Source: Maricaulis sp.
GTDB lineage: Bacteria > Pseudomonadota > Alphaproteobacteria > Caulobacterales > Maricaulaceae
Direction of reading: 5' to 3'
DNA: 64,000 bases
Assembly (NCBI RefSeq): GCF_048269565.1
Contig: NZ_JBLXIK010000009.1
Location: 12,487-76,486, forward strand
Under the pieces are notes generated by a model. The model was not told the origin of the DNA. It saw nothing but the letters and a program-made list of their open reading frames with translations, and did no database searches. Both the position numbers and the translations under genes were made by a program. Positions 31,807 to 61,329 of this stretch are shown piece by piece; within the stretch, counting starts at the first letter, position 1; each line of letters begins with the position of its first letter.

Positions 31807-31947
31807 GGGCAATGCTGTGTCCGACTGCGCAAATCACCCGAATGGGCGTTCCAAACCGGCCAAAAATTGCTACAAGCAGTGGCATTGATCAACTAGCTGA
31901 TCGGTCGTGAGCGCGGGTTGGCTCAAGTCTATTTCCGGGAGTTCGAA

Positions 31948-32517: not shown

Positions 32518-32572
32518 TAAAACTCCAAACCCGTCATCCCATTAGCGGTGCCGGGCGATTGAGGGGGGCGAC

Positions 32573-33454: not shown

Positions 33455-33472
33455 AATTCAAAGCGAGTTCCG

Positions 33473-36239: not shown

Positions 36240-37224
36240 TCAGCCAGATATGCGGTCGTTCGGCCCCCTGCCGCCGACACTGTTGGCGAGATACCACTCA
36301 TAGGCATCCGCCAGCCCTTCGCGGAACCCGATCGAGGGCTCCCAGCCAAGGCTGCGCAGCCGCGAGACGTCGAGCAGCTTGCGTGGCGTCCCGTCCGGCT
36401 TGCTGGTGTCCTTGCGCAATGAACCCTCAAAGCCCACGACGTCCATCACGAGCCGGGCGAGGTCATCAATGCGAATGTCCTCGCCGGTGCCGACATTGAC
36501 GTGTTCATCGCCGGAATAGACCTTGAGCAGCGTCACGATCGCATCGGCGCAATCGTCGGCGTGCAGGAATTCCCGCCGCACCGAGCCGCTGCCCCAGATC
36601 TCCATGGAGTCGGCCTTCGCCATTTTTGCTTCATGAGCCTTGCGGATCAGGGCTGGAATGACGTGCGAGGACTGCAGGTCATAATTGTCGAACGGACCAT
36701 AGAGATTGGTCGGCATGGCCGAGATGAAGTCGCACCCGTGCTGCCGGCGGTAGGCCTGGCACAATTTGATGCCGGCGATCTTGGCCAGCGCATACCATTC
36801 ATTGGTCGGCTCGAGCGCGCCGGTGAGCAGCGCGCCCTCCTGGATCGGCTGGTCGGCGAATTTCGGGTAGATGCAGGATGACCCCAGCAGGATCAGCTTC
36901 TCGACACCGACGCGGTGAGCCGCCTCGATGATGTTCGCTTCGATCATCAGGTTGTCATAGAGGAAGTCAGCCGGGTAGTGGTCATTGGCGAGGATGCCAC
37001 CGACTTTTGCTGCGGCGACTATGACCAGTTCCGGACGCGCATCCGCCATCCAGGCGCGTGTGGCCTGCTGGTCGCGCAGGTCGACCGACTTGCTGCCAAC
37101 GGTGAGCAGTTCGCCGGGCGCCTCGCGCTCAAGGCGCCGGACCACGGCCGAGCCGACCATGCCGCGATGGCCGGCGACCCATATCCGCTTTCCCTTCAGC
37201 GAACAGTGGGAGGGGAAATCGGGA

Positions 37225-37250
<26 letters not shown>
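36240..37250 (-). CDS. fcl: GDP-L-fucose synthase (GDP-4-keto-6-deoxy-D-mannose 3,5-epimerase/4-reductase)
   Basis: [20 protein letters not shown]...AAAKVGGI...GSSCIYP...[15 protein letters not shown] are canonical Fcl/WcaG motifs. Confidence 0.9.
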
Positions 37251-38295
<1,045 letters not shown>

Positions 38296-38774: not shown

Positions 38775-39512
38775 TTGGGTCAACCGGCCATTCAACTCGT
38801 GAGACGGGATATCCGCGCACAATATGCCGGATCGGGGCTCGGACTTTTCTGGGCCTTGCTCGAACCGCTCATCCTGGCCGGGGCGTTCATCTTTCTGCGC
38901 CATTCCGGCATGATCACGATCGGCGACATCACCTTGCCCTATGCGGTCTACGCCGTCACGAGCCTGATGGTGTGGCAGACCTGTGTCGACGGCATCAATG
39001 GCGGTCTCAATTCGATCACCCGGATGCGGCCATTGCTGAAGACGACCCAGGTGTCGGCTGGCTCGGTGGTCTCGGTCGTCATCCTGACTTCCTGCTTCTT
39101 CCATCTTTTCCGGCTCGTCGTCGCGCTCGGGGTGGCGATTGCCTTTGGCATCCATGACCCGGTCAATCTGCTCGCCTACGCCCTGTTTTCATTCCTGGCC
39201 CCGTTGTTCGGAGTCGCGATCGGCCTGTTGCTGGCGCCCTTCGCGGAGATATACCGGGATCTCAAGATTCTGGTTTCCTCTGCTCTGCGCCCGCTTCTCT
39301 TCGTGTCCGGCGTCATCATCCCCATCCCGGCCCAGTTCGGATTTCTGGGGATTTACAATCCCATCGCCGTGGCCATTTCCACCGCCCGTGATGCGCTTGT
39401 CGGCGTGGGGCGGGTGGATTACGTTCTGGCCGGGCTCTGGCTCGCCATCATGATCATTGTGTTCGCAGTCGCGCTTTTCGTCTTCCGGCGTACACTCAGA
39501 ATTGTCCTGTGA
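38775..39512 (+). CDS. wzm: ABC-2 type polysaccharide export permease (Wzm/KpsM-like)
   Basis: 245 aa. VRRDIRAQYAGSGLGLFWALLEPLILAGAFIFL is the ABC-2 N-terminal signature, followed by about 6 TM segments. Only TTG (38775) or GTG (38799) starts are possible after an in-frame TGA. Confidence 0.8.
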   Translation: MGQPAIQLVRRDIRAQYAGSGLGLFWALLEPLILAGAFIFLRHSGMITIGDITLPYAVYAVTSLMVWQTCVDGINGGLNSITRMRPLLKTTQVSAGSVVSVVILTSCFFHLFRLVVALGVAIAFGIHDPVNLLAYALFSFLAPLFGVAIGLLLAPFAEIYRDLKILVSSALRPLLFVSGVIIPIPAQFGFLGIYNPIAVAISTARDALVGVGRVDYVLAGLWLAIMIIVFAVALFVFRRTLRIVL

Positions 39513-39524
39513 GATCCTCCCGAT

Positions 39525-40988
39525 ATGCCGATCATTTCTGCCACTGGAATATCCAAGAAATATTCCCTTCGAGACCAGCAAACACGCCGCCGCGGCCTGG
39601 GCGCCCTGTTCCGCGAGATTGTCGGTCCGACTGAGGGCGACTCGGCATCGGTCGCGCTGTCCGAGGGGGAGTTCTGGGCCCTGCGCGATGTCGATCTGAC
39701 GGTGTCCGATGGCGAGACGCTGGGCGTGATCGGCCTCAACGGTGCCGGCAAGACGACGCTGATGAGCCTGCTGGCCGGCGTGATCAAGCCGGACACGGGC
39801 AGTGTCGTGCACAATGGTGATGTGCAGGCTGTGCTGAGCCTCGGGGCCGGCATCAACCAGAAACTGACCGGGCGCCAGAACGCCGAAAGCGGTGTCGCCC
39901 TGCGGGCGAGTTCCATCGAACAGCGTGAGGAAATGATCGCGCGAATCGAGGAATTTTCCGAACTCGGCGAATTCTTCGACAGTCCGGTCGGCTATTATTC
40001 CAGCGGCATGAAGGCGCGGCTCGGTTTTGCCATCTGTATCAGCGCCACGCCGCAGGCGATCCTGATTGATGAAGCGCTCTCGGTCGGGGACGCGTCCTTC
40101 AAGCAGAAATGCCTGCTCTATCTTGAGCAATTGCGCCGCCGCGGTGTCGGCATGGTGATGGTGTCCCATTCCATGACCTCGATCCGGCAGTTCTGCGATT
40201 CCGCGATCTGGGTCCATGACGGCCAGATCCGCGCGCGCGGATCGAGCGGCGAAGTCGTGCATGAATATCTCCAGTTTGTGGAGCAAAGGCAGACCAGCTC
40301 GCTGGCAACGCCCGCGCCTGCCAGGGATGGCAATGCCGCACCGGTTGCCCGCAGCGGCACGCGGGCCGAGCCGGCGGGCAGCAAGATCAAGAGCGTCATG
40401 GGAACGGCGTTCAACGCGGTGGACCGCCGGCCGTCCGTGCGGGCGCTCGGTCCGGTGGAGCGTGAACTGCATCTCTCGGGACAGCCCGGTGAGTGGATCC
40501 GGCCGGAAATCACTGCGACCGAGGTGAATGAATTATACGGGCGCCAACGCCCGGAACCCGGTGTCGCCGAATTCTCCGCCGCACTGCTGGTCAATGGCCA
40601 GCCCACAAACGAGGTGTGGCCGCATGAGAGCATGGAGATCGAGTATCGCTTCCGGCTGGCTGAGCCCGTCGGCAATCTCAACGTTTCGCTGGTGTTTCAC
40701 AAGGAAGGCAGCGGCCGCCTCGCGACCATCTCGACCCTGAACCAGGACTTGCTCAAGGACCAGAGCGAGGCCGGGGTGGTGCATTGCCGGGTGAGGATCC
40801 CGGACATGGTGCTCGCGCCGGGCAATTATGTCGTCACCATCTCGATCCATGACGGCAAGCCCTATCTGTGGCGGGATGTGATCCTGACTTTCCGCGTGCG
40901 GACCTCCGAATTGCTCACCTGGGGCGATATCAACCTGCCTTACAGCTATGAGGTCTATTCGACCATCGACGAAGCCGATGTCGAATAG
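39525..40988 (+). CDS. wzt: Polysaccharide ABC-exporter ATPase with C-terminal glycan-binding-type domain (Wzt-like)
   Basis: 487 aa. Walker A GLNGAGKTTL, signature YSSGMKARL, Walker B ILIDEALSVGD. After a Pro/Ala-rich linker comes a beta-rich domain of about 170 aa (ESMEIEYRFRL...LNVSLVFH...APGNYVVTISIHDG). It resembles my recollection of Wzt C-terminal domains in length and pattern. Confidence 0.85.
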   Translation: MPIISATGISKKYSLRDQQTRRRGLGALFREIVGPTEGDSASVALSEGEFWALRDVDLTVSDGETLGVIGLNGAGKTTLMSLLAGVIKPDTGSVVHNGDVQAVLSLGAGINQKLTGRQNAESGVALRASSIEQREEMIARIEEFSELGEFFDSPVGYYSSGMKARLGFAICISATPQAILIDEALSVGDASFKQKCLLYLEQLRRRGVGMVMVSHSMTSIRQFCDSAIWVHDGQIRARGSSGEVVHEYLQFVEQRQTSSLATPAPARDGNAAPVARSGTRAEPAGSKIKSVMGTAFNAVDRRPSVRALGPVERELHLSGQPGEWIRPEITATEVNELYGRQRPEPGVAEFSAALLVNGQPTNEVWPHESMEIEYRFRLAEPVGNLNVSLVFHKEGSGRLATISTLNQDLLKDQSEAGVVHCRVRIPDMVLAPGNYVVTISIHDGKPYLWRDVILTFRVRTSELLTWGDINLPYSYEVYSTIDEADVE

Positions 40989-41027
40989 GGCCGCGGCCAG
41001 GCCAGCGCGCCGCCCGGGGAGTCGTTG

Positions 41028-42242
41028 GTGAAACTGCTCGTGTTGTCCCATGCCGCAGATCGGACCGGCGCGCCGCGGAGCGCGTTGCTGCTGGCCCGGG
41101 AATGGGCCGCGATGGGGCTTGATGTCGAAATCCTGCTGCGCCGGGATGGCGTTCTTAGGCCCGCATTCGAGGCTGTGGCGCCCACCGCGATTTACCGGGG
41201 GCGGCCGGAATTCGGCCCGGGGGACGTCCTTCCTCTCCTGCGCGATTACGATCCTGGCATGGCTTTGAAGTGCCTGCGTAATCCTGACCGGCCCTATTGC
41301 CTCTCCCGCAACGAACGGCGGGATGCCGCCGCGCTGGCCGCTCGCTATCGCGCCTGGGGCGCGCAGGCGATCTATGCCAACACCTCGCACTGCGCCGATA
41401 TGATCGAGCCTCTGGGTCTCGATTTGCCGGTCCTGACCCATGTCCGGGAGATGGCGCCCAGTCTCCGGGCGTTGGACCCCCGCCGGCGCGCCCATCTCCT
41501 CCATGGCGATGGCCCGGTGTTGGCGGTGTCCGAACGTGGCCGGGCCGACCTGGCGGAAATCGGTGTGGCCGCATCGCGCCTCGGGGTCGAGCCGCCGGCC
41601 GCCGCGGTGCCAGATCTTCAGGCGCTGGAGCGGCAACGCGACCGTGTCGAGCAGCAATTTGGCCTGGCGCCGGGCGACCGCCTGGTGGTCGGGGCCGGCA
41701 CGGTTGGTCCGCGCAAGGGTCCCGACCTGTTCATTGAAAGTCTCGGGCGAGCGATTGAAGCCGCACCTGCCGGCGAACGCATTGCCGGCCTCTGGCTTGG
41801 TGAGGGCGAGTGGCTGGATCCTTGCCGCGACCGCATCAAGGCGGCCGGGCTGGGCGATGCCGTCAGCTTCCCCGGGGCGATGGCGGATATCGCGCCGGTC
41901 CTGTACCGCGCCGACCTGCTGCTCTGCACCTCGCGCGAGGATCCTTATCCACGCGTGGTAATCGAGGCTGCCCTGGCGGGCACGCGGAGCGTCGCCTTCG
42001 CGGCGACCGGCGGCGCCGAGGAGTTCATCACCCGGTTCGATGCCGGCTCGCTGGTGCCCGCCTTTGATACCGGGGCCATGGCTGCCGCGATCACGACCGT
42101 GCTCAAGCGGCCGCACCGGTGTGACGCCGGCCTTGCCGCGCGCGTCGCTGCCGAACGCTCGGTCGAGCGCAGCGCCCGGCGCATTCTCGACCGGCTGCAG
42201 ATGCTGACAGGAGAGGCCAATGCCACGTCTGCTGATTCATAG
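41028..42242 (+). CDS. Glycosyltransferase, GT-B fold (GT4-like)
   Basis: GTG at 41028 lies 6 nt after GGGGAG (TTG at 41025 is also possible). VKLLVLSHAADRTGAPRSALLLA... N-domain. C-domain: LLLCTSREDPYPRVVIEAALAGTRSVAFAATGGAEEFI. Confidence 0.8.
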   Translation: MKLLVLSHAADRTGAPRSALLLAREWAAMGLDVEILLRRDGVLRPAFEAVAPTAIYRGRPEFGPGDVLPLLRDYDPGMALKCLRNPDRPYCLSRNERRDAAALAARYRAWGAQAIYANTSHCADMIEPLGLDLPVLTHVREMAPSLRALDPRRRAHLLHGDGPVLAVSERGRADLAEIGVAASRLGVEPPAAAVPDLQALERQRDRVEQQFGLAPGDRLVVGAGTVGPRKGPDLFIESLGRAIEAAPAGERIAGLWLGEGEWLDPCRDRIKAAGLGDAVSFPGAMADIAPVLYRADLLLCTSREDPYPRVVIEAALAGTRSVAFAATGGAEEFITRFDAGSLVPAFDTGAMAAAITTVLKRPHRCDAGLAARVAAERSVERSARRILDRLQMLTGEANATSADS

Positions 42243-42921
42243 CACGCCCGACACGCTGGCCAGTGCTGCGGCCGACGAGATCGTCCGGGCCGTGAACCGG
42301 CATGCCGGGCGGCGCTTCAATCTGGCGCTGTCGGGCGGGTCGACGCCGCCGCTGATCTTTCGCCGGTTGCGCCGTTTGCTTGAACGCCGGCTGCCCGTCG
42401 ACCGCCTGCGCCTGTTCTGGATTGACGAGCGCTGTGTGCCGATCGGCCACCCCGACAGCAATGCCGGCAGTGCCCGCCGCCATCTCGGGCGCATCTGGAA
42501 TGGCGCTGATGTCCGCGCAATGTCGGGCACGGTCCCGCCGCAGGCCGGCGCTGCCGCCTATGCCCGGCGCCTGGCGTATTTTGGCGGCGCTCAGGCTTTC
42601 GACATGGCGCTGGTGGGGCTGGGGCCAGACGGACATGTCGCCTCGCTCTTTCCCGGCTCTGACGCGCTGGATGCGAGCGGGACCGTGACAGTGGGTCAGT
42701 CGCCACGCGGTGATCAACGATTGTCGGTGACGCTCGACGTGCTGCGGGCAACGCGATCCCTGCTGGTGGTGGCGTGCGGTGAGTCGAAGGCCTGGGCCGT
42801 GCGCGAGGCCCTTACCGGGCCGGTGCTTTGCCCGTTCGCGCGCGCCTGCGCCGGTCGGCCGAGCGTCCAGATCCATGTCGACGCCGCCTGTGCCCGGGCA
42901 TTGGGCCGGCGCGGGTCATAA
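42220..42921 (+). CDS. 6-phosphogluconolactonase / NagB-fold sugar-phosphate isomerase-deaminase family protein
   Basis: 233 aa. FNLALSGGSTPPLIFRRL...WIDERCVP...ALVGLGPDGHVASLFPG is the Pgl/DevB signature. RBS GGAGAGG. The start overlaps the preceding GT gene by 23 nt. Confidence 0.7.
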   Translation: MPRLLIHSTPDTLASAAADEIVRAVNRHAGRRFNLALSGGSTPPLIFRRLRRLLERRLPVDRLRLFWIDERCVPIGHPDSNAGSARRHLGRIWNGADVRAMSGTVPPQAGAAAYARRLAYFGGAQAFDMALVGLGPDGHVASLFPGSDALDASGTVTVGQSPRGDQRLSVTLDVLRATRSLLVVACGESKAWAVREALTGPVLCPFARACAGRPSVQIHVDAACARALGRRGS

Positions 42922-43030
42922 ATCTCATGCTGTGGCAGTGAAACGAGCCGCTAACAGCCTCTCCGGTCGATTGATCATTGAGGTCTAAGCAGATATTCTT
43001 TCGCCTGAATCAATCAATTGGAGAATTCGA

Positions 43031-43762
43031 ATGGCTAGCACGGGGGGCGTCAAGAACTACTATGTGTTCACGACACACAAAGCGGCGTCGAGATTTATTG
43101 ATGCCCTGATGAGGGACATCGCAATTGGAACTGGATTGGAGCTGCATGCCCCCAAACATCCGGGATTTCCACGCGAGAAAGAACTCGAGCGCGATCCAAG
43201 CAAGCTGACAGTAACCGGTTTGATCGGAACTTTGCGATACGCGTTCATGCCGCTGGACTGGGAAGATTCACATATCATGCTGCACCTGCGAGATCCGCGG
43301 GACGTGCTGGTGTCATTGTATTTCTCCCACAAATACTCCCACCGGCGGAGCAGTGAGGGCTTCAACCCTTCCTCTGACTCTTTGAATGAGTTGGACAAGG
43401 GGATTGATAACTACGTTATGTTCAGGGCGCCCCAGTATCTGGAGCGGTACAACTTCTATATCGAGAATATGCTCGGCAAGGAGAATGTGACCTTCTCGCG
43501 CTATGAGGACATGGTCATGGACTTCGAGGGCTGGTTGCCCCGTTTCCTCGAGCCCTATCCGCTGCGCAACCGCAAGGGTTTCATTGCCAAGCAGATGAAG
43601 AAGCGCGCGGCGCAGTTCGAGCTCGATGGCAGTGAGGATGTCACGGCGCACAAGCGCAAGGCCGTGCCGGGTGACCACAAGGAAAAGCTGGAGCCGGCGA
43701 CGATCGAGGCGCTGAACAAGATGTTCGCGGGGCCGCTCGCCAGCCTGCAATACGAAGTCTGA
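43031..43762 (+). CDS. PAPS-dependent sulfotransferase (Sulfotransfer_1/3-like)
   Basis: 243 aa. VFTTHKAASRF lies at the position of the 5'-PSB loop, and LRDPRDVLVSLYFS is a 3'-PB-type motif (RDPRD..VS). RBS GGAGAA. GC is clearly lower than in the flanks. Confidence 0.7.
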   Translation: MASTGGVKNYYVFTTHKAASRFIDALMRDIAIGTGLELHAPKHPGFPREKELERDPSKLTVTGLIGTLRYAFMPLDWEDSHIMLHLRDPRDVLVSLYFSHKYSHRRSSEGFNPSSDSLNELDKGIDNYVMFRAPQYLERYNFYIENMLGKENVTFSRYEDMVMDFEGWLPRFLEPYPLRNRKGFIAKQMKKRAAQFELDGSEDVTAHKRKAVPGDHKEKLEPATIEALNKMFAGPLASLQYEV

Positions 43763-43921
43763 CGGGCGCCGCACCCGGCTTGCTGCGGGGCATCCTGTAA
43801 TGGAATACCGGGTGGCTGCCCTGTGCGCCGGCCGCCCGGACGTGAAGTGGGAGTGCGCCCCGGCCGGACTTGCGCCGGGCCGGGGCGCCACCCTTTCCGA
43901 TCAGGCACCAGGGGGATACAG

Positions 43922-44620
43922 ATGAGCGTTGATGGCGAATACCTTTACCTTTTCAACCACATTCCAAAAACAGCCGGGACGGCGTTCAAGAAGTTCATCC
44001 TGAAGAATGTGGGTGAACAGCGCTTTCTGGACATCATCCATCCGGACAAGGCGAAGATCGACGAGACCCTGGCGGTCACGAATACCGGCGAGCTGAGCTG
44101 GATTTGCGCCAATTTTCACAAGAACCAGATCGAGGGGCTGCGCCAGTCTGACGGCCGGCCGTTGAAAATCGTTACCATGCTGCGTCACCCGGTTCAGCGC
44201 GGCATGTCGCTGTACCGCTTTGTCCGCAACAAGAAGTCCCACGCCCTGTACGAGACCATCTCGCGCATGGATATCCTGGACTTTGCGCGTGACGACGCGC
44301 TCGACCGGCAATTGTCGGAATATTACACGCGGCGCTTTGGCGGTGGTTCGATTGAGGCGGCGACGGCATTCCTCGAACAGGACAAGCTGGTGGTCGGGAT
44401 CACCGAAGAGATGAACGCGACGATGGCGGCGATCGCCGAGGCGACGGGTTTCGCCCAGCTTGAAGTCCCGCGCGCGAATGTTTCAAAGGAGTTTTCCGAA
44501 TTCGATGTCGACGGTGAGCGTGTCGCCGAGGCCACGCGGATCCTGACCGAAAAGAACCGGCTGGATATCGAGCTGTATGATCGTTACCGCGATGCCCTGT
44601 TGGCGTCTGTAGTTTCATAA
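43922..44620 (+). CDS. Sulfotransferase family 2-like protein
   Basis: ATG at 43922 after GGGGGA. LFNHIPKTAGTAFKKFI (the HIPKTAGT PAPS loop) and MLRHPVQRGMSLYRF (RHP..R..S.Y) are the family-2 sulfotransferase hallmarks. Confidence 0.7.
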   Translation: MSVDGEYLYLFNHIPKTAGTAFKKFILKNVGEQRFLDIIHPDKAKIDETLAVTNTGELSWICANFHKNQIEGLRQSDGRPLKIVTMLRHPVQRGMSLYRFVRNKKSHALYETISRMDILDFARDDALDRQLSEYYTRRFGGGSIEAATAFLEQDKLVVGITEEMNATMAAIAEATGFAQLEVPRANVSKEFSEFDVDGERVAEATRILTEKNRLDIELYDRYRDALLASVVS

Positions 44621-44770
44621 CAAATCCGGATTCCGGCGCTGCCGTTAACCAGGTTATTTGGTGTGTGGGCTGGTTTTTCAGCCATGATTCCGGTTGATTT
44701 CAGGCGCGATTGCGCTAATCAGTCCGGATCGTCCCTGAACACTAATTTCTGGTCCTGAGAGAGGAAAATT

Positions 44771-44950
44771 ATGAGCTTTGAACCAAACGGTCTGGGTTGC
44801 CCGGAAGCCGTCGCCTATGCCCTGATGCTTCACATGGCCGCCGTTGAAGGCGTGTCGCTGTCCGGTGGCGAAAACTCCGCCAGCAAGAAGTGGATCATGA
44901 ATACCTACGCCAAGTGCCTCGAGCTCGTGAAGCAGCAGCCTGCGTCCTGA
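44771..44950 (+). CDS. Possible small protein (59 aa), unknown function
   Basis: Below the ORF-track cutoff and read by hand: MSFEPNGLGCPEAVAYALMLHMAAVEGVSLSGGENSASKKWIMNTYAKCLELVKQQPAS*. ATG lies 6 nt after GAGAGGAAAA. It sits in an otherwise empty 440-bp gap. The tracked antisense ORF 44678-44953 looks spurious. Confidence 0.35.
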   Translation: MSFEPNGLGCPEAVAYALMLHMAAVEGVSLSGGENSASKKWIMNTYAKCLELVKQQPAS

Positions 44951-45060
44951 CATCCCGCCTCGACGCTGTGTATTGCCCTTGTCAAAAGGGGCGCCCAGTT
45001 TTCGGTTGTCGATGAGTTTTCAGTGACATCCCAGAAACTTAGCCCGGGTGAAGTGTTCCA

Positions 45061-45744
45061 GTGACTATCATTGCCATGATCCCGGCCCGGATGGGCAGCC
45101 AGCGGCTCAAGAAGAAGAACCTTGCGCCGCTGGCCGGCATCCCGCTGATCCGCCGTGCGGTCCGGCGCTGCCAGGCGGCCGGTTGTTTCGACCGGATCGT
45201 CGTCAATTCCGAAAATGTGGAATTTCGTGAGCATGCGCTTGCGGAAGGCGCCGAATTTCACCAGCGCCCGGACTGGCTCGGCGGCCATGACGCTACCAGC
45301 GAGGACTTCGTTGGCGAATTCATGCGCGCCCATTCCTGCGATCGTGTCTACCAGGTTCATTCGATCGCACCGCTCGCATCGGCCGATCATATCCGCCGCT
45401 TCGTCGAATATGGCGAGAGTGGCGAGCTGGACACGGTCCTCAGCTGCGTCGAGGAACAGATCGAGTGTGCCATGGGTGGCGAGCCGGTCAATTTCACCTT
45501 CGACTCCAAGACCAATTCCCAGGAATTGCCGCCACTGCAGCGCATCACCTGGAGCCTGACCAGCTGGACCCCGTCGGTTTTCCTCGAAGCGCAGGACGCC
45601 GGGCGCTGCGCCACCTATGCCGGCCGCGTCGGGATAATGCCCTTGGATCGCTGGTCCGGGCATGTCATCAAGACACAACAAGACTTGGATATCGCGGAAG
45701 CCCTGCTGAGCCATCTCGGAGACGGCCCGCAATTCGGTGGCTGA
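45061..45744 (+). CDS. Acylneuraminate/KDO-type cytidylyltransferase family protein (CTP_transf_3; NeuA/KdsB-like)
   Basis: 227 aa. IIAMIPARMGSQRLKKKNLAPLAGIPLIRRAV is the N-terminal CTP-binding signature of CMP-ulosonate synthetases. GTG start. Confidence 0.8.
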   Translation: MTIIAMIPARMGSQRLKKKNLAPLAGIPLIRRAVRRCQAAGCFDRIVVNSENVEFREHALAEGAEFHQRPDWLGGHDATSEDFVGEFMRAHSCDRVYQVHSIAPLASADHIRRFVEYGESGELDTVLSCVEEQIECAMGGEPVNFTFDSKTNSQELPPLQRITWSLTSWTPSVFLEAQDAGRCATYAGRVGIMPLDRWSGHVIKTQQDLDIAEALLSHLGDGPQFGG

Positions 45745-45787
45745 ACGGGCGATCGCCCGTCGCGTCACATTCCAGAAGGACAGGATA

Positions 45788-46822
45788 ATGGTGTTGAAGA
45801 TCGGGGTCGTCGGATTCGGCAAGATGGGGCGAATCCGCAAGGCGACGCTTGATGCGCGCAGTGATGCGCGCGTTGTGGCGCTGGCCGATCCCTATGCCGA
45901 TATGTCGGACCAGCCGGGCATGATCCGGCATACCGACTGGGAAAAACTCCTGGAAGAAGACATTGATGCGGTTGTCATCAGCTGCACCAATGAGCTGATC
46001 CCGACCGTGGCCGTCGCCGCCCTGGCCAAGGGGCTCCACGTCTTCTGCGAGAAGCCGCCGGGGCGCAACCCGCAGGATGTCTACCGCATTCGCGAAGCCG
46101 CACAGCAGCATCCGGAACTGATGGTGAAGTTCGGTTTCAACCATCGCTATCATGAATCCGTCGAACAGGCGCGGCGGCTGGTGTCGTCGCAGAGCCTTGG
46201 CAAAATCCTGTGGATGCGCGGTGTCTACGGCAAGGCCGGCGGCCCGGAATTTGACAAGAACTGGCGCAATGTGCCGAGCCGCTCCGGTGGCGGCATCCTG
46301 CTCGACCAGGGCATTCACATGATCGACCTGTTCCATGATTTCTGTGGGACCTTCAGCGAAGTGAAGAGCTTCGTCACCAGCCAGTACTGGAACATTCCGG
46401 TCGAGGACAATGCCTTCGCCCTGCTGCGCAATGACCAGGGCCAGGTCGGCGTTATCCACTCTTCGGCGACGCAATGGCGCCACACCTTCCGGCTCGAGAT
46501 CTTCCTCGAAAAGGGCTTTTTGACGCTTGAGGGAATCCTGTCCTCGACCATGAGCTACGGCAAGGAAACCCTGATCGTCGCGCGCAACACCATGGACGAG
46601 AACGGCTATCCACTGCCCAATCCCGAAGAGGTGATCAGCTTTTTCGCCGATGACCGCTCTTGGGAAAAGGAAATGACCGAATTCGTCACCTGCGCCCTGG
46701 CCGGCGAACCGGTGCGGATCGGCACGGTGCAGCAGGCGGTCGATGCCATGGAAACGGTGTTTGCCATCTACGGCGCTGACAATAGCTGGACCCAGTCTGA
46801 CGAAAGCGAGCAATCGGCATGA
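45788..46822 (+). CDS. Gfo/Idh/MocA family NAD(P)-dependent oxidoreductase
   Basis: ATG at 45788 after AAGGACAGGA. LKIGVVGFGKMGR Rossmann start and the FCEKPP motif typical of the family. Confidence 0.8.
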   Translation: MVLKIGVVGFGKMGRIRKATLDARSDARVVALADPYADMSDQPGMIRHTDWEKLLEEDIDAVVISCTNELIPTVAVAALAKGLHVFCEKPPGRNPQDVYRIREAAQQHPELMVKFGFNHRYHESVEQARRLVSSQSLGKILWMRGVYGKAGGPEFDKNWRNVPSRSGGGILLDQGIHMIDLFHDFCGTFSEVKSFVTSQYWNIPVEDNAFALLRNDQGQVGVIHSSATQWRHTFRLEIFLEKGFLTLEGILSSTMSYGKETLIVARNTMDENGYPLPNPEEVISFFADDRSWEKEMTEFVTCALAGEPVRIGTVQQAVDAMETVFAIYGADNSWTQSDESEQSA

Positions 46823-47823
46823 AAACCTCGGTCCTGATTGATGAAATGCGCCTCGCCGAAGTGCGTCCCGACCAGGTCTCGAAACGCTACGAGGAATTGC
46901 GCCGGGCCGAAGCGGCGCATTTGCTGCAGAACCCGTCGACACGCTGGGTCGGCCGCGCCAATCCGACCCGGAGCTGCAAGCCGGAACCGGCTTTCATGTC
47001 CGACGGTCTGAGCTTCCATCATTGCCCCGACAGCGGTTCGCTGTTCGCCTCGCCGGTACCGGTGCAGGACGAGCTCGACCGGCTGGCCCGCGATGGTGAG
47101 GCCGCGCGCTGGCGCCGTGATTATTTCGGTCATCGCTTCTCGGAAAAACAGCGCCAGTCGATCCATGCGCCGATCGTGCGCTGGGCCCAGGAAGTCATTG
47201 ATGAATACGGTCTCGAGGCGCCGCGTACCGCTCTGGTCGGCAATGACGAGACGGGACTGGCCAGCTCGCTCAGCGCCATGGGCCGGCTCGGCGAGATGGT
47301 GCTGACCGAGCGCGTCTCCGGTCAGCCTGCGCCGGAGGGCACGGTTGAAAGGCCGGTTGCCGAACTCGGCGCCGCGTCCTTCGATCTCGTCTTTGACATG
47401 GGCTCGCTGGAACGGGTGTCCGACCCGGAACGCCGTTTCGCCCTCTGGTCGGAACTGGTCACGCCCGGCGGCTTCCTCGCCTTCACCACCAGCATGGCCA
47501 GCGGGCTGGAATATCGTGTGCTCGGCCCGAAAGCGGCCAGCTTTATCGCGCTCGACCGGCTGACGCTGTATTCGGTGCCGGCGCTGATGGAACAGCTCGC
47601 GGCGCACGGCTTTGAAGTCGTTGAATTCTCAACGCCGGGCCGGCTCGATGTCGAAGTCCTGACCCAGGCCTTCGCCGACGGGGCTCCAGCCGACAATCCG
47701 CTCGATTTCTGGACCCACGCGCTCAAGCATGGCGGCGAGGACTTCAAGACCGACCTGCAGCGCCTGCTGCAGCGTCACCGTTTCTCATCCTTCGCGCGTG
47801 TGCTCGCGCGCCGGGTTACCTGA
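46819..47823 (+). CDS. Class I SAM-dependent methyltransferase-like protein
   Basis: 334 aa. The C-terminal half has FDLVFDMGSLERVSDPERRFALWSELVTPGGFLAFTT (Methyltransf_11/23-like post-I/II motifs). The N-terminal half was not recognised. A 4-nt overlap links it to the upstream gene. Confidence 0.55.
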   Translation: MKTSVLIDEMRLAEVRPDQVSKRYEELRRAEAAHLLQNPSTRWVGRANPTRSCKPEPAFMSDGLSFHHCPDSGSLFASPVPVQDELDRLARDGEAARWRRDYFGHRFSEKQRQSIHAPIVRWAQEVIDEYGLEAPRTALVGNDETGLASSLSAMGRLGEMVLTERVSGQPAPEGTVERPVAELGAASFDLVFDMGSLERVSDPERRFALWSELVTPGGFLAFTTSMASGLEYRVLGPKAASFIALDRLTLYSVPALMEQLAAHGFEVVEFSTPGRLDVEVLTQAFADGAPADNPLDFWTHALKHGGEDFKTDLQRLLQRHRFSSFARVLARRVT

Positions 47824-47855
47824 TCCATCATTCTATCTGAAGGCAGTAGCATCTC

Positions 47856-48770
47856 ATGACAAAAGGCAAGATCCTCATCGGCCCCTCGAGCTATGGCGAG
47901 GCGAGCCCGGCGCCCGTGGAACTGCTGCGTTCGGCGGGATATGAAGTGATCGATAATCCGTTCAAGCGCCGTCTGACCCGCGAGGAATTGCTCGAGCTCC
48001 TGCCCGGCATCACCGGCCTGATCGCCGGCCTCGAGCCGCTCGACCGGCCGGTGCTGGAAAAGTCCGATCTCAAGGCCCTGGCCCGCGTCGGTTCGGGCAT
48101 GTCCAATGTCGACATGCCGGCGGCGGAAAGCCTGGGCATCCACGTTTCGAACACGCCGAACGGTCCGGTTCTCGCTGTTGCCGAACTGACGGTCGGCTGT
48201 CTGATGAACCTCTTGCGCCAGACCTCGGCCATGGACCGCGCCATGCGCGCCGGCGGCTGGGACAAGCGCATGGGCCGCCAGTTGCGCGACCTGACCATCG
48301 CCATCGTCGGCTATGGCCGTATCGGCCGCCAGACCGGCGATCTGTTCACCGCGCTCGGTGCCAGGATTCAGATTGTCGACCCCTTCGTCGACCCGTCGAC
48401 CGTGTCGGCGCCGGTGGTCACGCTCGAACAGGCGCTGGCCGAAGCCGATGCCATCTCCCTGCATGCCAGCGGCGAGACCTGCATCATCGATGCGGCGGCC
48501 TTTGCGGCGATGAAGCCGGGCATGTACCTGCTCAATGTCGCCCGCGGCGAGCTGCTTGATTATGACGCGCTGTTTGCGGCACTCGATGATGGCCGCGTCG
48601 CCGGTATCTGGGCCGACGCCCACCCGCAGGAGCCCTATAAGGGCGATCTGCTCAAATACGACCAGGCCCTGCTGACGCCGCATGTCGGCTCCTACTCGCT
48701 GGAGGGGCGCATCAAGATGGAAATGGATGCGGCCGAGAACCTGCTCGCCGATCTCGGCAAGGCCTCCTGA
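47856..48770 (+). CDS. D-isomer-specific 2-hydroxyacid dehydrogenase (phosphoglycerate-dehydrogenase-like)
   Basis: IAIVGYGRIGRQTGDLFTALGARI NAD motif, followed by LLNVARGELLD and the PHVGS catalytic His region. Confidence 0.8.
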   Translation: MTKGKILIGPSSYGEASPAPVELLRSAGYEVIDNPFKRRLTREELLELLPGITGLIAGLEPLDRPVLEKSDLKALARVGSGMSNVDMPAAESLGIHVSNTPNGPVLAVAELTVGCLMNLLRQTSAMDRAMRAGGWDKRMGRQLRDLTIAIVGYGRIGRQTGDLFTALGARIQIVDPFVDPSTVSAPVVTLEQALAEADAISLHASGETCIIDAAAFAAMKPGMYLLNVARGELLDYDALFAALDDGRVAGIWADAHPQEPYKGDLLKYDQALLTPHVGSYSLEGRIKMEMDAAENLLADLGKAS

Positions 48771-49525
48771 TGGCGGATCTCGCCGAACTGCGCGCCGTGC
48801 TGGTGGCGGCCGAGGATGCGGCCCGCGCCGCTGGCCAGGCCCTGCGCGATGGCGGCGGCGATTTCGAGGGCGTCGAGCGCTCGGAAGGCCGGGACATCAA
48901 GCTCAATGCCGACCGCGCGGCCGAACGCATCATCATCGACCGGCTCACCGCTCTGGTGCCGGCGCCGATCCTGTCCGAGGAAACCGGCTGGACCGCGGCG
49001 GCGGGCGACAAGGTCTGGGTCGTCGATCCGCTGGACGGTTCGGCCAATTACAATCGCGATATTGCCCTGTGCAGTGTCTCGATCGCCTGGGTCGAGAACG
49101 GGCGTCCGGTCGCCGGTGTCATCTATGAATTCCTCAGCGAGCGCCTCTATAGCGGCGCCGTCGGGCTGGGGGCCTGGTTGAATGGCAAGCCGATGAGTGT
49201 CGCCGATCACACGCGGACCGAGGACTCGATCCTGTTTACCGGCCTGGCGATCAACCGGGATTTCAGCGCGCAGGCGCTGGGGGATTTCGCAGCCGGTTTC
49301 GCGCGCTGGAAGAAGGTGCGGATGATCGGTTCGGCGGCAACATCGCTGGCCTATGTCGCGCGCGGTGCCGCCGATGCCTATTTCGAGGACTCGATCATGT
49401 TCTGGGACGTCGCAGCCGGCTGTGCCCTGGTCGAGGCCGCTGGTGGCCGCTTCTCCATCGCCGGAGACTCAATGGACATGCCCGTTTGTGTGCATGCGGA
49501 CAATGGCAAGCTCTGGACGCTCTGA
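48770..49525 (+). CDS. Inositol-monophosphatase-fold sugar/acid phosphatase
   Basis: SEETG...WVVDPLDGSANY...WDVAAG are IMPase motifs. TGATG overlap with the upstream dehydrogenase gene. Confidence 0.8.
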   Translation: MADLAELRAVLVAAEDAARAAGQALRDGGGDFEGVERSEGRDIKLNADRAAERIIIDRLTALVPAPILSEETGWTAAAGDKVWVVDPLDGSANYNRDIALCSVSIAWVENGRPVAGVIYEFLSERLYSGAVGLGAWLNGKPMSVADHTRTEDSILFTGLAINRDFSAQALGDFAAGFARWKKVRMIGSAATSLAYVARGAADAYFEDSIMFWDVAAGCALVEAAGGRFSIAGDSMDMPVCVHADNGKLWTL

Positions 49526-50297
49526 CCCGGCCGCCATCGCGCAGGCGCTGGGCGCGGCGCGGGCCGCAGGCCAGGCGTTTGACCCGCTGACACGTTTCGG
49601 ACCGCTCAGCCTGGAAGCCGGTTATGCGATCGCGGCCCTTCGCTGTGATCCTGCTCAGGCGGCGGCCTACAAGCTCGGCGGCACGACCGGGGCGACGCGC
49701 ACGGCGTTCGCGGTTTCGCGGGCCTATGCCGGGGCGCTGTGCGCCGATCAATTGATCAAGGACGGCCAGGACCTGCCGACGGGCCTGATCAATCCGGTGG
49801 TGGAGCCGGAAATTCTGCTCGCCTTTGACCGCCCCTTCGCGCCGCAGCGCGCCGCCCGCAGCGTCCAGGCGCTGCGCGACGAACTGGCCTGGGTCGGGAT
49901 CGCGCTGGAAGTGCCCGCCACCCCCGTCAGCGGCCTGCCGCAAACCGGGGTCGGCTGGCTGCTCGCCGATTGCTGTGCCGCCGGCGCCCTGGTGGTCGGC
50001 GAACAGCTGTCGCCAGCGCATCTCGACACCCTGTCGCAGGCGCGGGTCACACTGCAGGTCGGCACGCGGACATCACAGGGCGAGGCCTCGCGGCTGCTTG
50101 ATGGCGCGCTTGGCGCGATGTCCGACATCCTGGCGGTGTTCGGGCAATTGGGCTGGGCCGTGCCGGCGGGCATTCCTTTTGCAACCGGCGGGCTGGCCCC
50201 GGCGCTGCCGATTGGCGCGGGCGAGACGGTGCAGGCCGGCTTTGCCGGTCCGGGGATTGAGTTGTCGATATCGACCCGCCTGTGCGAAGAAGGCTGA
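49503..50297 (+). CDS. Possible FAH-fold 2-keto-4-enoate hydratase/decarboxylase-like protein (MhpD/HpcG-like)
   Basis: About 264 aa from the ATG at 49503, overlapping the upstream gene by 23 nt. AGYAIAA...AYKLGGTTGATR...PVVEPEILLAF...ATGGL loosely follows the hydratase family pattern as I remember it. This is the weakest call in the block. Confidence 0.4.
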   Translation: MASSGRSDPAAIAQALGAARAAGQAFDPLTRFGPLSLEAGYAIAALRCDPAQAAAYKLGGTTGATRTAFAVSRAYAGALCADQLIKDGQDLPTGLINPVVEPEILLAFDRPFAPQRAARSVQALRDELAWVGIALEVPATPVSGLPQTGVGWLLADCCAAGALVVGEQLSPAHLDTLSQARVTLQVGTRTSQGEASRLLDGALGAMSDILAVFGQLGWAVPAGIPFATGGLAPALPIGAGETVQAGFAGPGIELSISTRLCEEG

Positions 50298-53531: not shown

Positions 53532-54503
53532 ATGATGAGTACGATCCAGGAGAGCGTCCGCGCCTACGCGAAGCGATTTCAGAGCGCCCGTCACCGGGAA
53601 CGTCCGCTTTCGGCTCACCTCAAGGCCCTCGAATCCGAGAGCATGCACATCATGCGTGAGGTCGCGGCCGAGTTTGACCGTCCGGTGATGCTCTACTCAG
53701 TTGGCAAGGATTCGGCCGTCATGCTGCATCTGGCGATGAAGGCCTTCTACCCCTCCCTGCCGCCTTTCCCGCTGCAGCATGTCGACAGCACGTTCAAGTT
53801 CCGCGACATGATCGCGTTTCGCGATGCCATTGCCGCGGAACTCGGTCTGGAAATCCGCGTCGAGATCAATGAGGAGGGGGTCGAACGCGGCATCAATCCC
53901 TTCGACCATGGCTCCAATCTGCACACCCAGGTGATGAAGACCGAGGCGCTGCGCGCCGCCATGAACCGGCACAAATATGATGCGGCCTTCGGCGGTGCCC
54001 GCCGCGACGAGGAAAAATCGCGCGCCAAGGAACGGATTTTCTCCTTCCGTGACGGCAATCATGGCTGGGATCCGAAGAACCAGCGGCCCGAGCTCTGGCG
54101 CAATTACAATACCAAGATCAAGCAGGGGGAATCGATCCGCGTCTTCCCGCTGTCCAACTGGACCGAGCTCGATATCTGGCAGTACATCCTCGAGGAAGAA
54201 ATCCCGATCGTGCCGCTGTATTTCGCGGCGCACCGCCCGGTCGTCGAACGCGATGGCCAGCTGATCATGGTCGATGACGAGCGCCTGCCGCTCGCCGACG
54301 GCGAGACGCCGGAGCTGCGGCTTGTGCGTTTCCGCACCCTGGGCTGCTATCCCCTGACCGGTGCCGTTGAATCCGGTGCCACGACGCTTGAGGAAATCGT
54401 GATCGAAATGCTCACGGCGCGGACCTCCGAACGGTCCGGCCGCCTGATCGATCATGACGAGTCCGGGTCGATGGAGAAGAAGAAGCGGGAGGGCTATTTC
54501 TGA
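53532..54503 (+). CDS. cysD: Sulfate adenylyltransferase subunit 2
   Basis: [39 protein letters not shown] (PP-loop SxGKDS) and the C-terminal ...[10 protein letters not shown] typical of CysD. RBS GTGAGGA. Confidence 0.9.
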
Positions 54504-60815: not shown

Positions 60816-61029
60816 GCGATGGATGACGAAGAAAGTGTTTGGCGCGGATGTCCGGCCGGGTCAACGGCGGCATCGCGGTCCGCACGCCATGAATTGTTGC
60901 GGATATCGGCCTCGCTTTTGCCCCGATCCGGTGCGAGAAAACCCGGTATTGACCACGGGAGTCAAGGCGCGGGGCGGCAATCTTGAGACAGTACTTGAAC
61001 TTTGACGCGACGCAGCGGATTTTAGGACG

Positions 61030-61323: not shown

Positions 61324-61329
61324 ATCGGC

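Follow-up and report, generated by a model that had tools for sequence, protein, structure and literature searches.

A Maricaulis glycan locus with two predicted sulfotransferases and the sulfated surface polysaccharide that it may encode

Described sulfation systems and the Maricaulis locus

The closest described systems come from two marine Gram-negative bacteria: Cobetia marina KMM 1449, which carries the cluster for a chemically proven sulfated capsule (PMC11766843), and Vibrio sp. KMM 8419, which has a sulfated polysaccharide cluster with PAPS genes and sulfotransferase genes as its hallmark (PMC11641403). Because PAPS genes combined with sulfotransferases and an ABC exporter are a design already described in marine bacteria, the locus reported here leaves the thinking of the field unchanged, and the view of the initial annotation, that sulfated bacterial glycans are rare and have rhizobia as their precedents, is outdated now that the Cobetia and Vibrio clusters have been published. 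The rhizobial NodPQ proteins with NodH, NoeE, LpsS and KpsS follow a like logic, in which a PAPS supply of the CysD/CysN-CysC type serves surface-glycan sulfotransferases, and fucosyl sulfotransferase activity has been reported for KpsS (PMC11625862). NodH is a member of yet another Pfam family, PF13469, different from those of the two Maricaulis proteins, which we call ST1 and ST2. A tblastn search of 72,556 plasmids, the usual carriers of nodH and noeE (LpsS and KpsS being chromosomal), gave no rhizobial plasmid match to ST1 or ST2 at E <= 1e-3, so that within the reach of this search the Maricaulis and rhizobial proteins are not orthologues. A literature search for glycan sulfate or glycan structure in Maricaulis found nothing.

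The window, which is the whole stretch of 64,000 nucleotides of Maricaulis DNA that was analysed, contains a glycan locus of about 43 kb with ST1 and ST2 at its middle. The features on which the argument depends are as follows.

36240-37250, minus strand: Fcl, GDP-L-fucose synthase (NCBIfam equivalog, 515.8 bits, cut-off 500)
37225-38295, minus strand: Gmd, GDP-mannose 4,6-dehydratase (NCBIfam equivalog, 598.1 bits, cut-off 415)
38775-39512, plus strand: Wzm, ABC2_membrane (Pfam)
39525-40988, plus strand: Wzt, ABC_tran with a C-terminal, glycan-binding Wzt_C domain (47.4 bits, cut-off 30.4)
41025-42242, plus strand: GT4 glycosyltransferase (Pfam and NCBIfam)
42220-42921, plus strand: 6-phosphogluconolactonase-family (6PGL-like) gene, directly upstream of ST1 (Pfam and NCBIfam)
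43031-43762, plus strand: ST1, predicted soluble Sulfotransfer_1-type protein, 243 aa (Pfam PF00685)
43922-44620, plus strand: ST2, predicted soluble Sulfotransfer_2-type protein, 232 aa (Pfam PF03567)
45061-50297, plus strand: CMP-activated-sugar genes, downstream of ST2 (Pfam and NCBIfam)
53532-54503, plus strand: CysD (NCBIfam, 524.5 bits, cut-off 413)
54503-56398, plus strand: fused CysN-CysC (NCBIfam, 1001.8 bits, cut-off 715)
57287-59095, minus strand: anion permease (Pfam: CitMHS, two TrkA_C domains, Na_sulph_symp weakly matched)

As in this locus, the Cobetia and Vibrio clusters gather sugar-precursor genes, glycosyltransferases and an ABC exporter together with cysD and cysN/cysC, an anion/sulfate permease and one or more sulfotransferase genes, and in those systems too the presence of sulfotransferases varies between strains; the likeness described here is one of gene content. 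The exporters differ, being Kps-type with KpsS/C priming in Cobetia and Vibrio and Wzm/Wzt with Wzt_C, of the O-antigen type, in Maricaulis. The products of the former are proven and contain sulfated rhamnose, whereas the deoxyhexose of the Maricaulis glycan would be L-fucose, as predicted from the genes.

The locus probably directs the synthesis of a surface polysaccharide that leaves the cell through an ABC transporter. Wzm and Wzt (38775-40988) are the predicted ABC exporter for a lipid-linked glycan, and the closest structures to the nucleotide-binding domain of Wzt are TarH/TagH and the Aquifex Wzt. The downstream set comprises a cytidylyltransferase, a Gfo/Idh/MocA oxidoreductase, a methyltransferase-like gene, a 2-hydroxyacid dehydrogenase, an IMPase-family phosphatase and a hydratase-like gene, and it is also found in loci without ST1 or ST2, among others in the Roseobacter group and in Pseudovibrio. 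The IMPase-family (Inositol_P) gene at 48770-49525 had been considered as the PAP phosphatase CysQ, a label that we dropped because its NCBIfam scores fall below the cut-offs (100 bits for CysQ against 228.8) and because the gene is present in sulfotransferase-free loci.

The gene assignments of CysD and CysN-CysC, the latter with its APS-kinase domain at residues 458-607, are firm, and their inferred role is to make PAPS from sulfate and ATP; they could also serve sulfur assimilation, the window being only part of the genome. The permease at 57287-59095, with an NCBIfam DASS score under the cut-off, is a possible sulfate importer. A third sulfotransferase was sought with tblastn and family HMMs in all six frames of the window, and nothing beyond chance (E about 0.9) was found; the chance-level match lies in an ORF at 60709-61632 (minus strand) that looks non-coding and has no Pfam match. 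Since two predicted sulfotransferases, CysD/CysN-CysC, Wzm/Wzt and GDP-L-fucose synthesis are found together in one locus, a sulfated surface polysaccharide is the best reading of the locus; this proposal of the initial annotation now stands on stronger grounds, which are the CysD/CysN-CysC, Wzm/Wzt and GDP-L-fucose genes.

Two predicted sulfotransferases and the histidine column of ST2

The two reading frames and all four motifs quoted in the initial annotation are present in the sequence. ST1, which is preceded by a GGAG ribosome-binding site 8 nt upstream, matches PF00685 with 38.2 bits (gathering cut-off 22, E 1.4e-9), the match covering only model positions 92-248. Its THKAAS motif occupies residues 15-20, in an F-T-x-H-K-A-A-S loop after a predicted strand at residues 9-14, and RDPRDVLVS occupies residues 87-95. 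In a 40-sequence family alignment H16 and K17 are kept in at least 90% of members, the residues R69, R87-D91, S95, Y158, E159, H207, R209, P213 and K219 never vary, and the C-terminal HKRKxxPGDxKxKL loop is invariant or almost so. Direct sequence searches against the PDB gave only marginal matches for ST1 and ST2, so family profiles and predicted folds were needed. The AF2 model of ST1 (pLDDT 89.7) gave 81 PDB matches at E <= 1e-3 in Foldseek, of which the best 50 are all sulfotransferases and the very best are cytosolic SULTs with probability 1.0. SULT2A8, SULT7A1 and SULT2B1 (PDB 7EOV, 5X2B and 1Q1Z) share the fold of ST1 (TM 0.55-0.64) as well as the RxPxDxxVS 3'-phosphate motif and the RKxxxGDxK loop, with the ST1 elements aligning with those of SULT2B1 and SULT2A8, but ST1 is only 14-18% identical to them, is shorter (243 aa) and has HKAAS in place of PKSGTTW. 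Neither ST1 nor ST2 has a hydrophobic or membrane segment. From its profile match, its PAPS-binding residues and its modelled fold, ST1 is thus predicted to be a soluble cytoplasmic PAPS-dependent sulfotransferase. It is also under purifying selection (dN/dS 0.055-0.087 against relatives), and its family is a large set of bacterial proteins of about 240-300 aa (227 matches), mostly unannotated metagenome sequences.

In canonical SULTs the catalytic histidine, which is His108 in SULT1E1, stands where strand 3 ends. The ST1 family has no histidine at this column and carries the invariant R69 after the equivalent strand; the aligned stretch of SULT2A8, the best-matching structure, is SLLPIQLF and is likewise without histidine. 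Candidate catalytic bases of ST1 are H16, H85, H104 and E159.

The start of ST2 required correction. The GTG at 43823 proposed by the ORF call over-extends the protein by 33 Arg/Pro/Gly-rich residues, which are the last 99 nt of the preceding spacer misread as an N-terminus, while the ATG at 43922 is the true start, with a GGGGGA ribosome-binding site and orthologues annotated at 231-232 aa.

43763-43921, no strand: ST1-ST2 spacer, GC-rich and non-coding (from the sequence and the orthologue starts)

The folding energy of 43760-43925 is indistinguishable from that of shuffled sequences (z -0.67), no promoter-like sites were found in the spacers, and terminator-like sites there number 3 against 2.1 +/- 1.5 expected.

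ST2 matches PF03567 with 39.8 bits (gathering cut-off 22, E 7.5e-10) and contains HIPKTAGT and RHPVQRGMSLY. Among 124 relatives the residues H13, K16, G19, R88, P90, S96 and Y98 show little or no variation: R88 and P90 never vary, S96 is serine in 123 and Y98 tyrosine in 121, and the K16 column holds lysine in 110 and arginine in 11. A smaller alignment of 40 sequences has K16, R88, P90, S96 and Y98 all invariant. With the AF2 model of ST2 (pLDDT 93.2) the top seven PDB matches in Foldseek are HS2ST and HS6ST (probability 1.0, TMq 0.62-0.67), and the family profile finds HS6ST (E 1.6e-25) and HS2ST (E 1.3e-17). These animal Golgi enzymes (PDB 4NDZ/3F5F and 5T03), whose substrates are polysaccharide chains, are about 14-17% identical to ST2 and have the PKTxxT loop and the RxPxxRxxSxY and GxTE motifs in common with it. 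By homology, in profile and in modelled fold, the placement of ST2 in the Sulfotransfer_2 family stands; this family has about 1,400 representative proteins.

The assignment of both proteins as sulfotransferases of two families was therefore borne out, with Pfam cut-offs passed, PAPS residues kept and confident folds that match sulfotransferase structures only. To call the two unrelated, as had been done, is too strong: the fold is common to both families, their two PAPS motifs line up in a profile-profile alignment, and some ST2 relatives match PF00685 and PF03567 over overlapping stretches.

Whether both enzymes work is a different matter. The second histidine of the HS2ST HGH motif, which we take to be the catalytic base His142, aligns together with that of the HS6ST GlH motif with the histidine of a GH dyad in the ST2 family. 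At this column 122 of the 124 relatives have histidine, and 118 have glycine at the first position of the dyad, whereas ST2 reads AN, with Asn64 in place of the histidine. All five Maricaulis orthologues have A-N-F-H with a 4-residue insertion. The activity of ST2 is uncertain because of this asparagine, and it is conceivable that only ST1 works and that the Maricaulis ST2 is impaired, either binding PAPS/PAP without transfer or being a gene on its way to loss; in that case the locus would sulfate one kind of position instead of two. The gene is indeed frameshifted in three related loci (L001, L002 and L010) and missing from a fourth (L003), while ST1 is kept everywhere. Nevertheless, the dN/dS of ST2 (0.07-0.135, over dS values up to 1.2) indicates purifying selection and long-term constraint, its PAPS-contact residues are all intact, the alignment near the insertion is ambiguous, and the lineage-conserved His66, next to the insertion in the same loop and two residues past Asn64, could serve as the base. 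We consider an impaired ST2 rather unlikely, about the most serious of the alternatives discussed here, and think that the catalytic base may have been shifted rather than lost. A novel reading, less ambitious than the one on the chain end below, is that the Maricaulis ST2 clade may have either a relocated catalytic histidine or the role of a constrained, non-catalytic PAPS/PAP-binding partner. Of the earlier proposal that two enzymes imply two acceptor positions, the two predicted sulfotransferases remain and the two positions are uncertain, both for the histidine column and for the strains in which ST2 is a pseudogene or absent.

Composition and history of the sulfotransferase segment

The low-GC islet described in the initial annotation corresponds to a real dip in sliding-window GC (56-57% against 63%). 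ST1 has 55.6% GC, ST2 56.9% and the whole window 63.2%; the interval 42951-45000, at 56.9%, is within the lowest 1% of sliding windows of its size, and the lowest 500-bp value is 51.4% (43000-43499). Two very GC-rich genes just upstream (GT4 and 6PGL-like, 69-70%) exaggerate the contrast with the flanks, the downstream flank has only about 60%, and the window has a second, equal dip at 31.4-33.5 kb. Since the GC3 of ST1 (0.74) and ST2 (0.75) is close to that of 50 window genes (0.778 +/- 0.035), the dip lies mostly in codon positions 1 and 2; the two proteins consist of 27-29% K/N/I/F/Y/M. The picture differs in sister strains, where GC3 is 0.57-0.64 for ST1 and 0.68-0.69 for ST2 against 0.75 +/- 0.015 for the other genes of the locus (z -3 to -12.6).

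Comparison of Maricaulis loci gave the segment its borders and revealed a small companion gene:

42724-44960 (approximate), no strand: exchangeable segment with the 3' end of the 6PGL-like gene, ST1, ST2, s59 and the spacers (from the L009/L003 breakpoints)
44771-44950, plus strand: s59, a conserved 59-aa orphan ORF that accompanies ST1 and ST2 (conserved in relatives)

Two M. salignorans genomes (loci L009 and L003) are 97-100% identical in nucleotides on both sides of the segment, but inside it they are 70-80% identical or unalignable, and the ST1 of L003 is 69.8% identical in amino acids, with ST2 absent. Both genes are intact in L009, which belongs to the cultured strain M. salignorans DSM 16077. 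Between L005 and L001 there is a recombination patch that begins near nt 100 of ST1 and ends near nt 400 of ST2. The exchangeable segment matches the window's low-GC stretch in position. As far as the contigs reach, gene order is kept in all fetched Maricaulis loci, and those that extend far enough also carry CysD and CysN-CysC; the GT4 gene is the most divergent of the locus (66% amino-acid identity to relatives, dN/dS about 0.2). The s59 gene lies inside the replaced segment; in seven fetched relatives a gene of 59 aa occupies the corresponding position, and in L003 one of 62 aa, with 83-93% tblastn identity in the three relatives measured and a dN/dS of 0.085-0.19. It has no Pfam or NCBIfam match, and a homologue search found it in Maricaulis alone.

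The segment could be regarded as a recent horizontally inserted islet of this genome, on account of the low GC (lowest 1-3% of windows), a codon fit of ST1 that is 1.6 SD under the mean, and unusually long spacers of 109-159 bp between the genes. Several observations speak for an older history. In all related Maricaulis loci recovered over the whole pair region, except L003 (ST1 only), ST1 and ST2, or a remnant of ST2, occupy this site; their dS values (0.36-1.2) are like those of the flanks; nucleotide identity to relatives is unbroken at the borders in the lineage of this genome; and GC3 in this genome departs from the window mean by about 1 SD or less. In addition, no integrase or transposase ORFs were found at 40-48 kb, no tRNA in the window, and only short, chance-level repeats at the flanks. 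No empty site turned up: all three Maricaulis genomes found with the neighbouring cytidylyltransferase carry ST1 there, and more distant loci have a different architecture. A recent insertion is therefore very improbable. From the segment replacement and patching, the decay and loss of ST2 and the deviant GC3 of the relatives, the ST1-ST2-s59 segment is best described as an old, compositionally distinct and recombining modification cassette. The suggestion of horizontal insertion keeps its part on a separate history, in the GC3 of the relatives and the segment replacement, and loses that on a recent event in this genome. Given the recombination of ST1-ST2-s59 and the loss of ST2, related strains probably differ in the sulfation of their coat, the gene variation being what is seen and the phenotype what we infer from it.

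Proposed pathway, chain end and biological meaning

In the mechanism that we propose, CysD and CysN-CysC, whose genes lie 9 kb downstream in the same orientation, would activate sulfate to PAPS, and ST1, probably with ST2, would act as an O-sulfotransferase that adds sulfate esters to the lipid-linked glycan on the inner side of the membrane, before export by Wzm/Wzt. L-fucose made through Gmd and Fcl is one plausible acceptor of the sulfate. The cassette recombines between strains, with ST2 lost in some. We give this whole proposal, that is, the PAPS supply, sulfation before export and a recombining cassette, a probability of roughly 0.7.

A further alternative concerns the substrate, since the acceptor is not readable from sequence. 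LpsS in Sinorhizobium acts on lipid A or core, and ST1 and ST2 might likewise act off the exported polysaccharide, on lipid A/core, on a CMP-sugar precursor or on a small molecule. The neighbours of the nearest ST1 homologue outside Maricaulis (44% identity), which are a CTP_transf_3 cytidylyltransferase and a 2-hydroxyacid dehydrogenase, give a hint of a link to the CMP-sugar branch, and one homologue, in Hyphococcus, lies outside any glycan locus. Other homologues are found among glycosyltransferase and flippase genes; an ST1-like and a family-2 sulfotransferase gene lie beside gmd, fcl and GT4 on a Pseudosulfitobacter plasmid, and a family-2 gene lies beside the same three on a Phaeobacter plasmid. 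In Maricaulis itself both genes are flanked by Wzm-Wzt-GT4 on one side and by the sugar-precursor genes on the other, with all of them on a single strand, and the nearest structures of ST2 are polymer-acting enzymes. A substrate other than the exported polysaccharide is thus unlikely, more so than an impaired ST2, and sulfation of the polysaccharide remains the preferred reading.

A further question is how the chain ends. Established Wzt caps are methyl, phosphomethyl and beta-Kdo. The Wzm/Wzt O-antigen systems of E. coli O9a, K. pneumoniae O12 and Aquifex aeolicus have, as here, an ABC2 permease and a Wzt_C ATPase, and transporters of the Wzt_C type recognise the completed chain by a chemical cap (PMC9445017). 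The Wzt_C domain implies that some cap should exist in Maricaulis, and the locus has three candidates for its chemistry, namely a methyl group, a CMP-activated sugar and sulfate. Strains that have ST2 and strains that lack it are 98-99% identical in the C-terminal domain of Wzt, which makes ST2 an unlikely cap maker. The idea that the cap read by this domain before export is sulfate placed by ST1, or a terminal sugar bearing sulfate, is a long shot, the least probable of the ideas considered here; a literature search on sulfate as a Wzt cap found nothing relevant. If true, it would give ABC-transporter-dependent O-antigen assembly a chain-terminating signal of a new kind, on a fucose-containing, fucoidan-like bacterial glycan.

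Nature has provided useful variants in near-identical backgrounds: strains with both genes intact, strains in which ST2 is a pseudogene, and one with a divergent ST1 and no ST2. Comparison of their glycans would assign the position sulfated by each enzyme without the need for mutants. Polysaccharide sulfotransferases of known specificity are wanted for the enzymatic production of sulfated glycans (PMC11641403). If the sulfated surface polysaccharide is confirmed, a stalked marine alphaproteobacterium would join the makers of sulfated surface glycans, and two large, uncharacterised families of bacterial sulfotransferases would be tied to a defined locus.

A sulfotransferase pair inside a glycan locus

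The glycan locus that contains the adjacent, same-strand genes ST1 and ST2 extends from about 17.4 to 60.2 kb of the window, and its main features are as follows.

23097-28268, minus strand: two tandem AT3-SGNH acyltransferases, ~850 aa each
28564-31806, plus strand: 1080-aa protein with an FkbM methyltransferase domain
31.9-33.5 kb: SIS and MptE-like genes
41025-42921, plus strand: GT4 glycosyltransferase and 6-phosphogluconolactonase-family gene (6PGL), upstream of ST1
43031-43762, plus strand: ST1, Sulfotransfer_1 family, 243 aa
43763-43921: GC-rich spacer of 159 bp between ST1 and ST2
43922-44620, plus strand: ST2, Sulfotransfer_2 family, 232 aa
44771-44950, plus strand: s59, an ORF of 59 aa with a good ribosome-binding site
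45061-50297: putative CMP-activated-sugar gene set, downstream of ST1, ST2 and s59
48770-49525, plus strand: Inositol_P-family (IMPase-family) phosphatase, easily mistaken for CysQ
Also in the locus: a nucleotidyltransferase, two phosphohexomutases and a UDP-glucose/GDP-mannose dehydrogenase; GT4 glycosyltransferases; Gmd and the GDP-L-fucose synthase Fcl (both above their NCBIfam equivalog cut-offs); Wzm, and Wzt with a Wzt_C domain; GlmS-like and DegT-type genes; CysD and a fused CysN-CysC (both above their cut-offs); an anion permease and a GT2

Just past the far end of the locus, the stretch within 60709-61900 between the GT2 gene and a DUF4386 gene has no gene assignment, and the ORF at 60709-61632 (minus strand) looks non-coding, being Arg-rich, with GC1 close to GC3 and no family match.

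Both adjacent ORFs and all four motifs cited in the initial annotation are present in the sequence, and only the start of ST2 had to be corrected. The ORF listing began ST2 at GTG 43823, where the extra 33 codons are read-through of the GC-rich spacer; because GGGGGA precedes ATG 43922 and the annotated orthologues are 231-232 aa long, the true ST2 is the 232-aa product of 43922-44620. By homology, both proteins are sulfotransferases, as had been proposed: Pfam Sulfotransfer_1 matches ST1 with 38.2 bits and Sulfotransfer_2 matches ST2 with 39.8 bits (cut-off 22 in both cases), and the predicted folds agree. The AlphaFold models (pLDDT 89.7 for ST1 and 93.2 for ST2) have as structural neighbours the cytosolic SULTs for ST1 (probability 1.0, TM 0.55-0.64) and the heparan sulfate 2-O- and 6-O-sulfotransferases for ST2 (TMq 0.62-0.67), which the ST2 family profile also matches by sequence (E 1e-17 to 1e-25). 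In an alignment of 40 ST1 family sequences, H16 and K17 of the P-loop are kept in at least 90%, while R87-D91, S95, Y158, E159, H207, R209 and K219 are invariant, and the RNPRDVxVS and RKGxxGDWK motifs of cytosolic sulfotransferases align with conserved ST1 elements. Likewise, a 40-sequence alignment shows no variation at H13, K16, G19, R88, P90, S96 and Y98 of ST2, and these residues vary little or not at all across 124 relatives. Both genes are under purifying selection (dN/dS 0.055-0.087 for ST1 and 0.07-0.135 for ST2), and one Maricaulis sp. protein is 100% identical to ST1. No hydrophobic segment was found in either protein, so both should be cytoplasmic.

The pair had been called unrelated, a word that goes too far. 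The profile-profile alignment of ST1 and ST2 is weak (probability 10%), yet both PAPS motifs are in register, and overlapping stretches of some ST2 relatives match both Pfam families. ST1 and ST2 are distant members of one fold rather than recent duplicates. The nearest non-orthologous relatives of ST2 (P0132, P0134, P0135, P0138 and P0154) are proteins of 500-960 aa with at least two tandem sulfotransferase domains, Gal-3-O-sulfotransferase-like and Sulfotransfer_2.

The active site of ST2 deviates from that of its relatives. Of 124 non-Maricaulis relatives, 122 have a G-H dyad after the third strand, and by profile its His aligns with the HS2ST motif HGH and the HS6ST motif GlH, which contain the catalytic His142 and His158. 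In place of this dyad, the five Maricaulis orthologues all have A-N-F-H with a 4-residue insertion, which puts Asn64 at the column of the dyad His and a conserved His66 two residues further on. Judging from these alignments, the catalytic base of Maricaulis ST2 may have shifted to another residue or been lost. The residue matching the canonical SULT His is absent from the ST1 family alignment too, and SULT2A8, the best PDB match of ST1, likewise lacks a His in the aligned stretch; the missing His is less worrying for ST1 because it is common to the whole family. The suggestion that two sulfotransferases imply two acceptor positions is weakened by the missing canonical His of ST2 and by the dispensability of this gene.

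Composition and history of the segment

The sliding-window analysis bore out the reported GC dip: ST1 and ST2 have 55.6% and 56.9% GC against 63.2% for the window, among the lowest 1-3% of windows. The contrast is overstated by the upstream GT4 and 6PGL genes, the most GC-rich ones here (69-70%). GC3 of ST1 and ST2 is 0.74 and 0.75 (compared with 0.778 +/- 0.035), and GC1 and GC2 are low; the dip in this genome is mostly an amino-acid effect. The SIS and MptE-like genes (31.9-33.5 kb) lie in a second, equally deep dip (31400-33500, ~56%) and have the same composition, with low GC1 and GC2 and normal GC3. The spacer between ST1 and ST2 holds a 13-14-bp G+C hairpin (GCGCCCCGGCCGG...CCGGGCCGGGGCGC) without a T-tail and of ordinary folding energy.

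A horizontally inserted islet had been proposed, and this idea survives in part. Recent insertion in this genome is unsupported, because no mobility genes, tRNAs or flanking repeats were found as insertion marks, those related Maricaulis loci in which the entire pair region was recovered hold both genes, or what is left of them, at the same site, the dS of the pair is similar to that of its flanks, and there is no identity break at the segment borders between this genome and its relatives. An empty site was not found in related loci. However, the relatives show that the segment has its own history. Their GC3 is deviant, at 0.57-0.64 for ST1 and 0.68-0.69 for ST2 versus 0.75 +/- 0.015 for other locus genes (z -3 to -12.6). 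Two M. salignorans loci, L009 (strain DSM 16077, both genes intact) and L003, share 97-100% nucleotide identity on both sides of the segment and are 70-80% identical or unalignable inside it. The segment begins ~180 bp ahead of the 6PGL stop and ends ~100 bp short of the cytidylyltransferase start, which corresponds to ~42.72-44.96 kb of the window, almost exactly the low-GC stretch drawn in the initial annotation. In L003, ST1 is 69.8% identical in amino acids and ST2 is missing. Between the related loci L005 and L001, the flanking proteins are 99-100% identical. A divergent patch starts near nt 100 of ST1, stops near nt 400 of ST2 and turns the latter gene into a frameshifted pseudogene, with a remnant that reads LCLFNYIPS. 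Thus, ST1-ST2-s59 is an old, compositionally foreign cassette exchanged again and again by recombination, from which ST2 was lost repeatedly. The small ORF s59, within this exchangeable segment, is 78-93% identical across Maricaulis (dN/dS 0.085-0.19), with no family match and no homologue found beyond Maricaulis. The GT4 upstream of ST1 is the most divergent gene of the locus (66% amino-acid identity to relatives, dN/dS ~0.2), compared with 91-93% for Wzm and the cytidylyltransferase.

Proposed sulfation pathway and its acceptor

PAPS synthesis requires APS kinase, and many alphaproteobacteria assimilate sulfur via APS, for which this kinase is not needed; its presence in the locus would therefore point to sulfation. 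From the gene identities, we infer that CysD and CysN-CysC would produce PAPS in the cytoplasm, that soluble ST1 and ST2 would add sulfate to a lipid-linked glycan at the cytoplasmic face, and that Wzm/Wzt would export the glycan after sulfation. It is unlikely that the sulfate made by ST1 is the cap read by Wzt, and ST2 is disfavoured as a cap maker because the C-terminal domain of Wzt is 98-99% identical whether or not a strain has ST2. The 1080-aa protein is a candidate for an enzyme that modifies or terminates the chain for Wzt_C-dependent export; its C-terminal FkbM domain (residues 876-1038) is the only part recognised, and the first ~870 residues have no family match. The tandem AT3-SGNH acyltransferases suggest that the glycan is also O-acylated.

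Since the locus makes GDP-L-fucose, L-fucose is a reasonable acceptor candidate. A Pseudosulfitobacter plasmid carries an ST1-like gene and family-2 sulfotransferase genes alongside gmd, fcl and GT4, a family-2 sulfotransferase gene has these same neighbours on a Phaeobacter plasmid, and rhizobial KpsS was reported as a fucosyl sulfotransferase (PMC11625862). Alternatively, the sulfotransferase could be linked to the CMP-sugar branch, as the nearest non-Maricaulis homologue of ST1 adjoins a CTP_transf_3 gene and a 2-hydroxyacid dehydrogenase. This branch is a set of ~8 genes (45061-50297 and 31918-33454) that recurs at 25-60% identity in loci L012-L023 from Leisingera, Phaeobacter, Pseudooceanicola, Pseudovibrio, a gammaproteobacterial MAG and an Anaerolineae MAG. 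It comprises a CTP_transf_3 cytidylyltransferase, a Gfo/Idh/MocA oxidoreductase, a methyltransferase-like gene, a 2-hydroxyacid dehydrogenase, the IMPase-family phosphatase, a hydratase-like gene, a GmhA-like SIS isomerase and 1-2 MptE-like putative transferases; a NeuB-type synthase is absent from the recurring set, which probably makes and transfers a CMP-activated acidic sugar. The IMPase-family gene scored 100 bits against a CysQ cut-off of 228.8, which does not support a CysQ identity. It may encode a sugar-phosphate phosphatase, because it accompanies the CMP-sugar genes in Roseobacter-group loci lacking ST1 and ST2.

Relation to known sulfation systems

Sulfated bacterial glycans had been described as rare, but the design of the Maricaulis locus has already been described in marine bacteria. 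Cobetia marina KMM 1449 makes a chemically proven sulfated capsule from a cluster that includes an ABC exporter, cysN/cysC, cysD, cysQ, a sulfate permease and a sulfotransferase (PMC11766843), and in Vibrio sp. KMM 8419 the presence of PAPS and sulfotransferase genes in a polysaccharide cluster was considered a hallmark of sulfated polysaccharide synthesis, with related strains lacking the sulfotransferase reported in the same paper (PMC11641403). The rhizobial sulfation systems are functional analogues and, as far as tested, not orthologues. In contrast to the Cobetia and Vibrio clusters, the Maricaulis locus has an O-antigen-type exporter (Wzm/Wzt with Wzt_C) and a supply of fucose, and both sulfotransferase families of this host are uncharacterised. 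The initial interpretation as a whole is partly supported; its core, that this Maricaulis locus encodes two sulfotransferases and produces a sulfated glycan, stands with a probability of roughly 0.7.
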